Below, piece after piece: positions 14,161 through 60,586 of a stretch of DNA of 64,000 bases. The DNA comes from an uncultured Clostridiaceae bacterium (GTDB lineage: Bacteria; Bacillota; Clostridia; TANB77; CAG-508). The notes under the pieces were generated by a model. It was not told where the DNA came from. It searched no databases and saw only the letters and a program-made list of their open reading frames with translations. The stretch spans positions 7,665-71,664 of the forward strand of contig CAOJVB010000001.1 in NCBI GenBank assembly GCA_948444845.1, read 5' to 3'. Positions within the stretch are counted from its first letter, which is position 1. Every line of letters begins with the position of its first letter. A program made the position numbers and the translations under genes.

Positions 14161-14233
14161 AAGAGCGCAATGGTGCAATTTGTAACAAGCATTCTAAGCC
14201 AACGGTGCCCTACGTTTGAAATCGATTTTTCCC
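14161..14233. repeat. REP-like GC-rich element with GCCCTAC end and aaatcgatttttcc flank module
   Basis: Same module as at 22718-22786 and 45671-45730. Confidence 0.55.
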
Positions 14234-14356
14234 TATTTTAAAAAAAATGAAATAAACTTTTATAAATTTCTAAAAGTTTATTTCATTCTTTTATTTATGT
14301 TATATTTTTGCATTATTAAATTTTATAGGAAAATTGTTATAATAACTATATTAAAC

Positions 14357-15097
14357 TTATTTAAAAAATTGTATTCTATCCTCAAGTTTATAATTTGCTT
14401 TTATGCTTATAATTTCATCTTTTAATCTTTGTTCCTTATCTGAAATCATAAAAGGATTTAGTTTATAATCCACAAATGTTTGAGTATCTTTATTCATGAC
14501 CCGCTTGGGTACAATTTGTATATTCCAGTCCAACAATAAATAATTATAAAAATATTCATATATGTTAAATTTAGAAGTTTGTATTGTGCTTGGCCATTGA
14601 CTTTCTACTGAATCTATATCACATGATTGTATTAAGATACTTTTCAGTATATCTATTTCATCAAGTGTTAATATTAATCGCTTAGGTTCATACCAGTTAT
14701 CCTTAGAATTATTCCAAAACATTGGATTATATCCTGTTGTTTCAAATAACTCTATTATATCTCCTCCAATTTTTGTTTTTTCACTAGAATATACTTCTAA
14801 AAAATATTGATATAATTTAAGTTTCATATATTTTTCAGAATTTAAATATTCCAGATTTCCTAAATATTTTATTGTACTTGTTACGTTCTCTATTGCACGT
14901 TCTTTATCATGTGGGCAATATACTCTTAAAGGATTAAATAATTGCTTAAATGTTTTCAGTATCTTATTTCCACCATGTCTTGAATCATTTTCACTAACAT
15001 TAACATATTCATCGTCTATCCTAGGATCAATAAATATTCCATGATCAAAAAATCCTCTATAAATCCTCTCGTAATGTTTAAAATACTTTAATGCCAT
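14357..15097 (-). CDS. Hypothetical protein
   Basis: Start at MALKYFKHY, which has an AGGAGG RBS. Confidence 0.5.
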   Translation of the reverse strand: MALKYFKHYERIYRGFFDHGIFIDPRIDDEYVNVSENDSRHGGNKILKTFKQLFNPLRVYCPHDKERAIENVTSTIKYLGNLEYLNSEKYMKLKLYQYFLEVYSSEKTKIGGDIIELFETTGYNPMFWNNSKDNWYEPKRLILTLDEIDILKSILIQSCDIDSVESQWPSTIQTSKFNIYEYFYNYLLLDWNIQIVPKRVMNKDTQTFVDYKLNPFMISDKEQRLKDEIISIKANYKLEDRIQFFK

Positions 15098-15301
15098 ATT
15101 TTTTTCCTCCTGCAAACATACATATATAAGTTTATAGTTACAAAATTTTATAGTTTTCCTTTTTTTCACTCCCTTCAAAACACAATGTAATTACAACTGT
15201 TATATTTATATACTAATATTATTTAGCTATTTTATCACATTCTGTAAACAATTACAAGTTTTTTATCTATAAACTGTTTTTAATAATTAACTTATTTAGT
15301 A

Positions 15302-15330
15302 AAGGGCACGGTGCCCCGTGCCCCTACTTA
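15302..15330. repeat. REP element (gggcacggtgccccgtgcccctac)
   Basis: GC-rich hairpin plus CCCCTAC, i.e. 5'-GTAGGGG on the minus strand. Confidence 0.7.
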
Positions 15331-15348
15331 GTATTTTAATTTATAAAT

Positions 15349-15708
15349 TTATAATTTCTCAATTTCTTCTTTAGTTAATCCTGTTGTTTCTATAATTATT
15401 TCTATATCTACTTTTTTATCTTTTAATTTCTTTGCTATTTCAGTTTTCGCTCTTTCAAAACCAGTTAGTTCAAGAGCATTTTGATCCAATATGTACTTTT
15501 CTCTTAAATCTGCTAAATATCTTTCATGTTCATCCATACTTATTTCTTCTAAAATTTCTTTAGCTTTTTTTATAGGTTCATCTACTTTACTCATATCAAT
15601 ATCACCTGACTTTATAATAAAATTTACCCAAGTATCTAATTTATCATTCACTGAATATCTTTGTACTTTTGGTAATTCGATTATATATATTGCCATTACA
15701 TCTGTCAA
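15349..15708 (-). pseudogene. Rpn/YhgA-like PD-(D/E)XK nuclease family transposase, C-terminal fragment only
   Basis: C-terminal TGLTKEEIEKL signature. The about 200-aa N-terminal nuclease domain is missing. TTG start. Confidence 0.5.
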
Positions 15709-15814
15709 GATGATATCTTTATATTCTTCTTCTCTAAAATTCCACTTTGTTTTATATTTTTTTATTGATTTAAGACTTTCAATATCAAAACTTGTGAATA
15801 ATATTGCTATACAC

Positions 15815-57605: not shown

Positions 57606-57775
57606 TTTTTATTTCTCGCTTTCTTTAAATAAAAGTTGGAGGTTGGAAGTTAGAAGCTTAAATACTTTAACTTTCATCTCTTCGCTTCTTTTAATTTATT
57701 ATTTATTTTACTATATTTATATGTTTTTTTCAAGTTTTTTAGCTCTGTTAGTAATAAAAGCTGAGAAATTTATAA

Positions 57776-59143
57776 TTATAAACTAAAAAATTCTTCTAGC
57801 CACTGTTTATCTACTTCTTTTTGTATTTTTTTATCTAATGCTTGTACTAAATTATAAAATTCTTTTAATATATCTCCATTTATTTCTCTTGCATTTTTTA
57901 CAACTGGTATTTGCATATGTATATAGTTGTCCACTTCTTCTGGGTAGGCAGTTATATTTGCTTTTGAATAATGATTAAGTAATCTTCTAGCTGTTAATAA
58001 TAATCTTTCTGTTTTTATTTCACTAATTAAGTCTTGTTTTCTAAAAGTTTTTAAGAAGGATTTATATGCTTCCTTATATTCTTCTGGATATTTTTCTCTT
58101 TTTTGTCTTTCCCATAAATCTTCTCTGATCCATTCTTGTTTAAATTCTTTTAATAAGTATTTATTTCTTTTTCTATGATATTCATAGTCTAATACATACA
58201 TACTTGGCACTTCTATGTCAGTTATTCCTTCTCTATGTAAAAGATTTATAAATATGCTTAGGGCTATTACATTTTTTGGTTCTACCTTCCAAGTGTCTTC
58301 CTCTGGTATATCTTTATTTACTTTGTACTTTTGTCTATCTATTTTCTTTTTTAAATGATTTTGTTCTGTTCTACCATTTTTATCTTGTATAGAACCTATA
58401 CTACATATTTTTTTATTATCTTTTTCATATATTCCATATCTTATTACTGGAAGTGTATAGTGTGGCCTATTCCAAAGTTCTTTATTATCATAATGTTCTT
58501 TATCATAAATTGTTATTTCCATTTGCCTGAAGTTTTCATCCCATGTTCTAGCTATTCCATTTTTTATACAAACTATATGATTATTTAGACATTCTAATTT
58601 TCCTAAATAAGTTTCTTCGTCATATTTTTCAAAAGTTGTATCTTTTATCATTTCTGCTTGCCTTTTTAGGAATTCTTCTGGATTATTGAAATCATTTGGT
58701 GTTGCTCGTAGCCAAATTTGTTCGAAAAAGTTATTTTTTTCCCATCTATTAAATCCTGTAGAATCTTTTCTTCTTTGAAAATATAATTCTATATGTCTTT
58801 CATATGATTGTCTTAGATATTCAAAAAAATTTTTATAGTCATTTATTATCATTACAGGTGTTTCGTCATTTTCATTAGTTTTTTGTTTTATCTTTTTTAA
58901 TAGCTTTTCATGCCTTGCTTGTATTTCTTCTTTATATTCATCATCTTTAAAGCTATTTGCATATTCTTTCATTATATTTTCTATAAATTCTATTGCTTCT
59001 TTTTCTCTAAAATCAAACTTGAAATTTGGTAATTCGTCGCTCGATAGTAATTTTTCTAAACTATCTAATACAAATTCTCTTGATACATTTTCAAATGTTG
59101 GCAACCAATCATCTGCTATTGTTCTGTTATTGGGTAGTTTCAT
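57776..59143 (-). CDS. Hypothetical protein (455 aa)
   Basis: No recognisable domains. MITE-B-derived array immediately upstream. Confidence 0.5.
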   Translation of the reverse strand: MKLPNNRTIADDWLPTFENVSREFVLDSLEKLLSSDELPNFKFDFREKEAIEFIENIMKEYANSFKDDEYKEEIQARHEKLLKKIKQKTNENDETPVMIINDYKNFFEYLRQSYERHIELYFQRRKDSTGFNRWEKNNFFEQIWLRATPNDFNNPEEFLKRQAEMIKDTTFEKYDEETYLGKLECLNNHIVCIKNGIARTWDENFRQMEITIYDKEHYDNKELWNRPHYTLPVIRYGIYEKDNKKICSIGSIQDKNGRTEQNHLKKKIDRQKYKVNKDIPEEDTWKVEPKNVIALSIFINLLHREGITDIEVPSMYVLDYEYHRKRNKYLLKEFKQEWIREDLWERQKREKYPEEYKEAYKSFLKTFRKQDLISEIKTERLLLTARRLLNHYSKANITAYPEEVDNYIHMQIPVVKNAREINGDILKEFYNLVQALDKKIQKEVDKQWLEEFFSL

Positions 59144-59215
59144 TGTTCCTCCTCTTTTTATTCTTTGTTTTTGTTTCTTCGTTAGGCTTTTTTATACTTT
59201 ATTATTATCTACTTC

Positions 59216-59600
59216 TTTCCGCATTGGGGACAGTCCCTCTTGGGACATCTTCGATTACCCAAGGGGGTGCTTTTAGTTATTTGCTTCTTTTTCTTCTCTA
59301 CTCTTGTTTCCTTTTTTGCTTCATTTCCGATTGGGTACATTTGTTATTGTTTTTAAGTTATTTTTGTTTTGTACATATTTTAGTTTTCTATCTTGTTTAT
59401 GCTTGCCCAATCTAGTGTCTCAGCACCCATTTAGGGACAGTCCCCAATGCTAGTTTTCTATCTTGTTTATGCTTGCCCAATCTTGTGTCTCGGCACCCAT
59501 TTAGGGACAGTCCCCAATGCTAGTTTTCTGCCTTGTTTATGCTTGCCCAATCTTGTGTCTCGGCACCCATTTAGGGACAGTCCCCAATGCTACCATCTCT
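59216..59600. mobile_element. MITE family B-derived array: 5' end module plus three tandem 62-bp copies of the 3' end module
   Basis: ttccgcattggggacagtccc..., then 3 x (ttttctatcttgtttatgcttgcccaatcttgtgtctcggcacccatttagggacagtccccaatgctag). Confidence 0.65.
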
Positions 59601-59672
59601 CCAATGCTAGTTTAAAAGCCCATATACCAACCTAGGTGTTAGCACATGGACCTTTTATTTTTGGGTTTATAT

Positions 59673-60371
59673 TTATATAGCTTCTTTGTTTTCTTGTAGT
59701 TCTTCTTCGTTTTGTGTGTTTCCTGCTTCGTCTATTACTTCTAGGCTTGCTATTGAAACTTCATAGGCTACTTTTACTTCTGATGTTCCATCTTCATATT
59801 TTTTCTCGTATTGTCTTGATTGAACTCTTCCTACTATTCTTACTTCTGTTCCTACTGGTACGTTTTCACAAAATCTTGCATTTCTTCCCCATGCTATACA
59901 TGGAATATAGTCTGATTTATTATATGCTCTGTTTACTGCTAGTAATAAATCTGCTATTTCTCTACCAAATGGTGTTTTTCTATATATTGGTTTTTTACAA
60001 ATATAACCTGTTAGTGTAACTTCATTTGATACGTTTTCTTTGCTTGGTTTGAATTCTTCATCTTCTTCGTTTGCAAATTTTATTTCTTTTGCAAAAACTG
60101 TAAGAACTAATTTATTTCTTTCATTTTCATAACTATTGTATGATCTGAATTGTCCTTCTATTATTACGTTTTTTCCTACATCTAAACTTTCTTCTATTAA
60201 TAATCTTTCAGATATTGTTATTGGTATAATATCTGCATTTCCACTTAAACGTGGTACACTTAAATCAAATATGTAAAATTTCTCTCCATAAATTTCATGA
60301 CTAAATCTTTTTTCGCTTGTTACTTTTCCAACTAATACTAGTTGATTATTCTCTGAATAATTTGTATCCAA
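59673..60371 (-). CDS. SSB-family single-stranded DNA-binding protein with two OB folds
   Basis: Second OB fold LLLAVNRAY...IAWGRNARF...VRIVGRVQSRQYE matches the SSB signature. Confidence 0.5.
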   Translation of the reverse strand: MDTNYSENNQLVLVGKVTSEKRFSHEIYGEKFYIFDLSVPRLSGNADIIPITISERLLIEESLDVGKNVIIEGQFRSYNSYENERNKLVLTVFAKEIKFANEEDEEFKPSKENVSNEVTLTGYICKKPIYRKTPFGREIADLLLAVNRAYNKSDYIPCIAWGRNARFCENVPVGTEVRIVGRVQSRQYEKKYEDGTSEVKVAYEVSIASLEVIDEAGNTQNEEELQENKEAI

Positions 60372-60563
60372 CTTAATTTCCTCCTCTTACTTTTGTTTCT
60401 CTCTTCGTATTTTATTCATATTGTTCCTCTTTTAGAATATTTTTCCTTACAAAAACTATTATACTACGTTTTTTTAGTTTTGTCTACATAAAAAGTTAAA
60501 ATTGTTTATTTTTTCTTTTTGAAATACTAAAATTCACTATACAACAGAATATTTTTTATGCTA

Positions 60564-60586
60564 TAGGGGCGATTACCCATCGCCCC
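60564..60586. repeat. REP element in forward orientation (taggggcgattacccatcgcccc)
   Basis: Reverse-complement relative of 49894-49926. Confidence 0.5.

Follow-up and report, generated by a model that had tools for sequence, protein, structure and literature searches.

The 64,000-nucleotide stretch of contig CAOJVB010000001.1 (assembly GCA_948444845.1, from an uncultured Clostridiaceae bacterium) that we analysed, called here the window, very probably holds a REPtron of uncultured low-GC gut Clostridia: repetitive extragenic palindromes (REPs) in the form of GTAG-headed hairpins, combined with linkers into mosaics like the bacterial interspersed mosaic elements (BIMEs), and one gene for a HuH-Y1 REP-associated tyrosine transposase (RAYT) of subclass 2.4. 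A preliminary description of the same DNA had proposed a GTAG-tagged REP family and a cognate RAYT with REPs in its own coding sequence, and this core reading was right, the gene being single-copy in the window.

The hairpin family is evident from simple counts. The window has a G+C content of 28% (27% had been announced), and in this background the motif GTAGGGGC, read on either strand and thus also as GCCCCTAC, is found in seven exact copies against 0.25 expected, a number reached in none of 100 shuffles; with one mismatch allowed there are 23 matches against 8.4 expected. We read all GC-rich islands with their contexts and arrived at an inventory of 16 elements, each with a GTAG-like head and a GC-rich segment after it. 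The earlier count was of at least 15 palindromes that end in GCCCCTAC; the exact ends number only seven, and the 16 elements fall into several sub-families with many relics. They span about 15.3 to 60.7 kb of the window, and nothing REP-like lies at position 14161, where the family had been said to begin. The match GTAGGGGG at 5034-5041 and other one-mismatch matches within long open reading frames (ORFs) were treated as chance. A strict REP rule taken from Quentin et al. asks for GT[AG]G at 0-2 nt from a fully paired stem of 7 bp or more, three or more of whose first four pairs are G/C; it is satisfied by five elements, and by 0.07 per shuffle. Folded as DNA and compared with shuffles, seven of the 16 have z scores of -3.2 to -4.6, three lie near -2 and six are indistinguishable from the shuffles; about ten thus fold better than shuffled sequence (the five that satisfy the rule and about five imperfect hairpins) and six are decayed relics, the hairpins with z of -3.3 to -4.6 having fold energies of -9.4 to -11.2 kcal/mol. 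All 14 copies outside the RAYT gene are placed between ORFs, several of them upstream of genes in divergent intergenic regions. Fourteen of the 16 are on the minus strand, which also holds most of the genes, and by the GC skew of the window the GTAG strand is leading-strand sequence, which is also the lagging-strand template; biases from transcription and from replication are inseparable here. A scan of the whole window with Rfam returned one tRNA only and no known RNA family for any element, and the type-B and type-C elements described below are thus not known RNA families.

Four sub-groups, plus relics, can be told apart: types A, B and C and an ATAG-headed hairpin. Type A is GTAGGGGCACGGGG(C/T)ACCGTGCC, with four exact copies and a fifth whose head is mutated, and the exact 23-mer GTAGGGGCACGGGGNACCGTGCC is likewise present four times. 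Two of the exact copies stand between ORFs on the minus strand, at 15304-15327 (z = -4.4) and 32555-32577 (z = -3.4), both recovered by the DNA fold and the strict-rule scan; the other two are inside the RAYT gene, and two decayed copies flank it. The copy with the mutated head, TATG for GTAG (45745-45767, minus, z = -4.6), opens a mosaic: it is followed by the AT-rich linker module CTTTTTTATTGAATAGGAAAAATCGATTTTAAT (45712-45744, minus) and then by a type-B element (45671-45711, minus, z = -2.3) made of a GTAAGGGCG hairpin and a second hairpin, GTGGCGAAGCCAC. The linker, AGGAAAAAT(C/G)GATTTT, adjoins three elements on their 5' or 3' side, and in the form ...TAGGAAAAAT(C/G)GATTTT... connects elements at 45712-45744 and at 23987-24030. 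A shared flanking module had been claimed from the start, and it is also conserved next to the same REP in related metagenome-assembled genomes (MAGs).

Type B comprises six longer elements, a GTAGGGGCG-hairpin followed by ACGTGGCGAAGCCAC, all on the minus strand. Besides the one in the mosaic, they are found at 49891-49927, where the first hairpin, GTAGGGGCGATTTTAATCGCCC, is intact (z = -3.2, also found by the strict-rule scan), at 22171-22200 (a type-B-like element, GTAGAGGCGTGGAC..GTCCGCACGC, z = -2.4), at 23944-23982 with a linker-like tail (z = -1.8), at 24031-24068 with a decayed first hairpin followed by the linker AGGAAAAATGGATTTT (z = +0.5), and at 60656-60696 (decayed and type-B-like, z = +0.7). 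Type C consists of two elements of 50 nt on the minus strand, a long one (GTAGGGGCACCGTTTGTGGGAATAC..., 44797-44848) with a weak predicted fold and a decayed copy (22717-22766), recognised by repeat-family comparison and 83% identical to 44797-44844. The GTAG of the first provides the TAG stop codon (44845-44847) of the ORF 44845-45564, a contribution of REPs to coding sequences reported by Di Nocera et al. (2013). Finally, the ATAG-headed hairpin ATAGGGGCGATTACCCATCGCCCC (60563-60590, z = -3.9) is a possible further REP variant and, with one of the in-gene copies, one of the only two plus-strand elements.

The transposase gene (20842-21409, minus) is represented by two ORFs in different frames, 21409-21206 (67 aa) and 21168-20842 (108 aa), from which a protein of 189-190 aa can be reconstructed. 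It contains PNHIH, WQRNYYEH and YIRNNP, so that the HuH and catalytic tyrosine motifs of the preliminary description are indeed present; in an alignment of 24 sequences the HuH histidines (H93, H95) and the catalytic tyrosine (Y170) are invariant, as are the HuH, WQ and YIxNNP motifs, and 75 residues separate HuH from Tyr. Quentin et al. (2018; PMC6006769, BMC Genomics 19:475) place in subclass 2.4, the equivalent of the group 4 RAYTs in Bertels et al. (2017; PMC5581495, GBE 9:2110), proteins of about 194 aa that carry NH[IFV]H, WQ and YIxNNP and in which a variable insertion separates beta3 (HuH) from alphaC, and by comparison of signatures with Table 1 of that paper the gene fits a HuH-Y1 RAYT of TnpA_Y1 subclass 2.4 / RAYT group 4. 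Profile searches gave a Pfam Y1_Tnp match of 38 bits, scores of 24-32 for the reconstructed protein and of 24-38 overall with the NCBIfam IS200 model (NF033573, cut-off 55) and, for the NCBIfam model REP_Tyr_transpos (NF047646, cut-off 80), 76.1 for the reconstructed protein, or 83.3 after deletion of the REP-coded residues, and 77.6 for a 96%-identical relative (P0001); two other homologues, P0003 and P0016, scored 81.0 and 85.7. A sequence search of the PDB returned the TnpAREP of E. coli (4ER8) as sole match (E = 6e-8), and Foldseek with an AlphaFold model of the intact allele described below (pLDDT 81) also ranked 4ER8 first (E = 3e-8, rmsd 2.3 over 160 columns), the IS608 and ISDra2 transposases coming next.

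The cognate REPs are both around and inside this gene. The two flanking relics are GTAGGAGCACGAGGCATCGTACCC (21426-21449, minus), 16 nt 5' of the start codon, and GTAGGGATATGAGATACCATGCCC (20767-20790, minus), 51 nt 3' of the stop codon, whose fold is weak and was seen with RNA parameters only. A REP immediately upstream of the gene had been announced, and an element does lie there, but it is a relic without a significant hairpin (z = -0.4). The two copies that had been described inside the gene are intact, with fold energies of -9.4 to -11.2 kcal/mol and z scores near -3.7. At site 1 (21248-21271, minus), the REP GTAGGGGCACGGGGTACCGTGCCC satisfies the strict rule (-11.2 kcal/mol, z = -3.7) and has its GTAG strand on the coding strand; at site 2 (21080-21102, plus) the REP is inverted relative to site 1, its GTAG strand being the template strand, and is read in frame as GTVPRAPT, 8 codons past HuH. 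In the model, the beta-hairpin found between beta1 and the first helix has its turn at site 1, and the site-2 peptide (residues 105-114, pLDDT below 50) lies after the HuH strand in a stretch, 101-122, devoid of helix or strand. The predicted structure agrees with the published view of both sites as peripheral, tolerant positions.

Both in-gene REPs had been thought to be translated stop-free; this is correct for the second one, but the two halves of the first are in different frames. The frame change lies in the G-run of the REP at site 1: reading through GTA GGG GCA CGG... meets a stop after 19 further codons, and in the frame in which the protein goes on (GHGVPCPQIKIELTKIGEIV...), the TAG within GTAG lies immediately before. 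The allele recurs in two independent assemblies, ERZ14864787 and SRR17684631, which match the window at 100% identity over 13.5 kb and 2.4 kb, and the 67-aa ORF, which is exclusive to the frameshifted allele, was found on at least nine contigs from at least eight samples. A 96%-identical relative (P0001; loci L003 and L004) has an intact ORF of 189 aa, and the window allele and L003 are set apart by a GG indel in the foot of the REP at site 1 (GTAGGGGCAC against GTAGGGGGGCAC), the window allele having 2 nt fewer (four G where the intact allele has six). Besides this indel the ORFs differ by one synonymous and five non-synonymous substitutions, too few for a selection test. In the broken allele both in-gene REPs are in perfect consensus form; in the intact allele one has the extra GG and the other a stem mismatch (CCGTGCC to CTGTGCC). 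The RAYT gene of the window is therefore probably a pseudogene. Its first in-gene REP has the canonical form, two nucleotides short of its counterpart in the intact allele, so that this strain most likely lacks RAYT activity, the enzyme not being produced at all, and its REPs have become passive elements; a full-length protein could arise only by a hypothetical +1 slip on GGG-G. As a side observation, six of the Logan contigs L161-L167, which carry the frameshifted allele, end about 260 nt past the 67-aa ORF, near the position of the second in-gene REP, and the REP thus appears to break short-read assemblies.

How general such in-gene copies are can be judged from relatives of the gene. A homology search returned 2,777 proteins; we fetched 80 further metagenome loci and located 70 genes in these and in five earlier loci. 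A canonical REP is present 5-135 nt past HuH in 59 of the 70, in the minus orientation in 56 and in the plus orientation only in three, and 32 of these site-2 REPs also read as 'double foot'; the remaining 11 genes have no REP past HuH. At site 1, a plus-orientation REP lies 125-166 nt before the end of HuH in 19 of the 70, and the opposite orientation was seen once. The two sites resemble each other within a gene (median identity 0.92) far more than between genes (0.65), and in-gene REPs resemble the extragenic REPs of the same locus (median identity 0.91, identical in 10 of 23) more than those of other loci (control 0.69). At the DNA level, worked through for three examples, each homologue carries its own hairpin sequence, reverse-complemented, just past HuH: in locus L005, GTAGGGGCACATTGCAATGTGCCC lies 90 nt upstream of the ORF, and in L006, GTAGGGGCAGGTCTTGTGCCTGCCC lies 77 nt upstream, and in both the exact reverse complement is found past HuH. 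L006 also has a decayed REP copy 3' of the gene, comparable to the downstream relic of the window, and in close homologues both positions are taken by peptides read through from a different REP (VGAHCMCP for site 1, GTLQCAPT for site 2). The preliminary description called in-gene REPs unusual. They are in fact an already published hallmark of subclass 2.4 / group 4 and hence not new: Quentin et al. (2018) reported in-frame REPs inside tnpAREP, mostly from HuH to Y, as a "remarkable and unique" trait of the subclass, and Bertels et al. (2017) found RAYT group 4 in 17 bacterial classes, with about 14 occurrences of the flanking 16-mers.

Two observations on hairpin sequences can be set beside this survey. 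The hairpin of the window, GTAGGGGCACGGGGCACCGTGCC, is found in identical form inside the RAYT genes of a WOR-3 MAG (L023, 3275-3302) and of a Glassbacteria MAG (L064), whose proteins are 43-48% identical to that of the window, and the closer homologue in L005 (58% identical) uses a different one; REP sequence is thus not a simple reflection of RAYT phylogeny. Several unrelated phyla share the stem GGGGCACGG, which is widely recurrent.

One way to account for the in-gene palindromes without any insertion is to regard them as an ancestral coding motif of the protein subclass, G-T-x-x-R-A-P-T past HuH, from which the extragenic REPs would have been copied as from a selected 'master copy'. We consider this unlikely, even if the Thr of 'APT' is invariant and RGTxxRAPT common among 24 diverse homologues, the site-2 REP is present in 84% of the relatives under a strong orientation rule, and the stem mentioned above is shared by unrelated phyla. 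The distance from HuH to the REP ranges from 17 to 130 nt, and all three codon phases are in use (35, 17 and 4 genes); these phases and the variable offset favour turnover over one frozen motif. Moreover, tandem and double-foot copies occur inside genes, 11 of the 70 relatives have no REP there, hairpins that are wholly different between lineages nevertheless match the local extragenic copies, and the region between HuH and Tyr is highly variable in length and sequence (Quentin et al. 2018). Together these points are a better fit to turnover or insertion.

Related genomes show how the family is distributed outside the window. In a set of species-representative genomes the exact 23-mer was found at 72 loci, mostly in gut MAGs of uncultured Clostridia, Clostridiaceae and 'Clostridium sp.', with about 17 loci each in the MAGs CANSTR and CANRMR, about 14 in CANPTO and 8 in CANOPV, and single matches in WOR-3, Glassbacteria, Aminicenantes, Saccharibacteria and others; the best nucleotide identity of these loci to the window is 74% (CANRMR, L038). 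By tblastn of the loci, exact matches inside RAYT genes are confined to WOR-3 and Glassbacteria. CANPTO and CAOJCG have the REP within the linker known from the window, TAGTATAGGAAAAATCGATTTCAAAT, with the type-C element after it, so that the mosaic organisation is conserved. In the related MAG loci, 53 of 73 copies are between two ORFs, 8 at a locus edge and 12 inside crude ORF calls, and in the low-GC loci 42 of 53 classifiable copies stand between co-directional genes with the GTAG strand as sense strand. In the CANRMR MAG, a second hairpin, GGGCAGACGCCTCTGTCTGCCC, is regularly found 5' of the type-A REP (L010, L022, L038, L046, L055, L061), and at six loci a near-identical sequence, CAAGAACCCGCAGCAATAAC...ATCCTAATAATCCTAGC, lies 3' of it, as if a multi-copy gene family began there, preceded by a pair of REPs.

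The placement of the hairpins between co-directional genes, on the sense strand, and the T-rich tails of a few of them (the element 45746-45765 and, in type B, the second hairpin of two elements, 24031-24043 and 45671-45683) could also suggest ordinary intrinsic terminators or stabilisers of mRNA 3' ends, functionally unlinked to the Y1 gene. Some elements may indeed serve as RNA hairpins or terminators. As an explanation of the family this is very unlikely: termination needs neither a conserved 5' GTAG head nor an identical 23-mer across species, identical copies are found inside and beside RAYT genes in many lineages, and several copies stand 5' of genes in divergent intergenic regions. For the canonical copies at 15304-15327 and 32555-32577, which are not terminator-like on the sense strand, we rejected it.

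That the gene is the IS200/IS605 transposase of a mobile insertion sequence, with the hairpins as its ends or solo ends, is hardly credible, for although a Y1_Tnp domain, degenerate hairpins in the same orientation on either side and the IS608 and ISDra2 structural matches would suit it, the IS200 equivalog score is far below its cut-off and the RAYT score (76-83) close to its own, the gene is single-copy in the window without a tnpB gene among its neighbours (a multi-copy transposase with a TnpB partner, named in the preliminary description as what would overturn it, was thus not seen), and two of the neighbours are the same in 96%-identical strains. These neighbours are the N-terminal subunit of transketolase, an M23 peptidase fragment and GtrA; GtrA and transketolase are those kept in the 96%-identical strain, which fits vertical inheritance. 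The M23 peptidase fragment (21465-21698, 77 aa) is directly upstream of the RAYT gene, and an ORF of 140 aa occupies that place in the related strain L003.

For the REPtron itself we propose a mechanism by analogy with E. coli TnpAREP and IS608. The enzyme would recognise the hairpin and its 5' GTAG on single-stranded DNA, the lagging-strand template, and would cleave and rejoin the DNA through a 5'-phosphotyrosine intermediate, which would allow REPs to spread or persist. The in-gene copies occupy the beta-hairpin turn and the loop after the HuH strand, where added residues are tolerated, and the fact that they stay similar to the REPs of the genome points to turnover or homogenisation with genomic copies. 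In the window strain, the RAYT would be inactive and the REPs left as passive elements, some perhaps acting as RNA hairpins or terminators.

A bolder extension, to which we give little credence, is that in-gene REPs are kept identical to genomic ones by RAYT-mediated replacement or by gene conversion in cis, the RAYT gene being a target of its own product. If so, perfect in-gene REPs would have cost the window allele its frame, and the intact allele would keep its frame with two 'damaged' REPs; perfection of the substrate would then conflict with coding integrity, a conflict that could drive recurrent inactivation of RAYTs or act as a switch, with a +1 slip on the G-run restoring the frame.

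Several observations weigh against the REPtron as a whole. The gene is broken here, so that the system may be dead in the window strain, and the score of the full protein with the NCBIfam RAYT model is just under the cut-off. No RAYT cognate to types B and C is present in the window, and several of the 'copies' do not fold. In related Clostridia MAGs, tblastn of loci of about 8 kb detected no RAYT gene within about 4 kb of the exact REP matches. Lastly, mobilisation of REPs by RAYTs is inferred even in E. coli, and for enzymes of subclass 2.4 it is likewise predicted.

The window contains other repeats and features. A second family, unrelated to the GTAG REPs, comprises three intergenic tandem repeats of 70 nt (59381-59590, 94-100% identical), each with a GGGACAGTCCCC palindrome, and related GCATTGGGGACAG motifs at 18258-18307, 19765-19814 and 59219-59249. 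Direct repeats of about 110 nt (18258-18368 and 19765-19874, 97-98% identical), with matches of 84-93% in other MAG species (L025, L075), bracket the ORF 18411-19682 (423 aa, no Pfam match), located between the genes for the N- and C-terminal subunits of transketolase; the 96%-identical strain (L003) has other genes after transketolase-N, and the ORF with its direct repeats may be a mobile cassette or a MITE-like repeat. Long near-perfect intergenic palindromes occur at 54866-55019, 61251-61392, 31097-31210, 39569-39678, 6779-7049 and 1740-1824, with arms of 50-73 nt that are 89-96% complementary and AAAAGGGACnG...TTGACA motifs; one was called terminator-like, and homologues exist in the CAOJCG and CANPTO MAGs (L009, L042). 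At a distance of 21 nt from the type-A REP 15304-15327 lies an ORF of 119 aa (15349-15708) whose match to PDDEXK_2 (the Rpn-type PD-(D/E)XK nuclease 'transposase') is limited to the C-terminal part of that domain, and which is therefore probably a fragment. The perfect 45-nt palindrome GTGGA...TCCAC at 48463-48507, with a 14-bp AT-rich stem, passes the GTGG-hairpin rule but was left out of the REP family, being AT-rich, unique and located after the ORF 48083-48445, with the convergent ORF 48563-49678 on its other side; a bidirectional terminator is the probable reading.

Compared with known systems, the window is closest to subclass 2.4 / group 4, sharing the three sequence motifs, the length of about 190 aa, the long stretch of variable sequence that separates HuH from Tyr, canonical GTAG REPs at up to 1 kb, in-frame REPs inside the gene, mostly between HuH and Y, and a modest number of repeats (about 14 flanking 16-mers in Bertels et al., up to about 17 loci of the 23-mer per related MAG). 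It differs by its host, an uncultured Clostridia lineage of 28% G+C where the papers list Cyanobacteria, Bacteroidetes, Chlorobia, Caldilineae and 'various phyla', by its short REP hairpin with an 8-bp stem and no 'long' or 'double foot' type, by a second in-gene REP before HuH in forward orientation, and by its frameshift. The E. coli enzyme (YafM/RayT, 4ER8) shares the HuH-Y1 fold, being the best match in structure and sequence, and is encoded by a single-copy gene (as here in the window), and the E. coli REPs and BIMEs share the 5' GTAG at the foot of a GC-rich hairpin and the intergenic mosaics of REPs and linkers; however, the proteins are only 22% identical, and E. coli TnpAREP belongs to subclass 2.2, with long bulged REPs in hundreds of copies and none in the gene. 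The TnpA of IS200/IS605 elements (IS608, ISDra2) has the same Y1 HuH fold and recognises sub-terminal hairpins on single-stranded DNA, which is predicted here, whereas the gene of the window lacks an insertion sequence structure and TnpB, is single-copy in the window and scores under the cut-off of the IS200 model. The Rickettsia palindromic elements, like REPs in ORFs (Di Nocera et al. 2013), show that small palindromes can be tolerated in frame, but here the host gene is the cognate transposase, and insertion sites and orientations recur across a whole protein subclass.

In practical terms, peptides such as VGAHCMCP, GTLQRAPT and GAIHESPL in 'hypothetical' proteins can be annotated as REP read-throughs. 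The survey of 70 relatives puts numbers on reports that were previously qualitative, namely two fixed in-gene sites, their opposite orientations and their co-variation with local extragenic REPs; it leaves the current picture of REP biology unchanged and may help thinking on how REPs are copied. The two natural alleles, of which one is intact and the other has its frameshift at an in-gene REP, form a clean pair for asking whether REPs decay after the loss of their RAYT, and the REP/RAYT systems of subclass 2.4 now extend to a very AT-rich lineage of gut Clostridia known from MAGs only.

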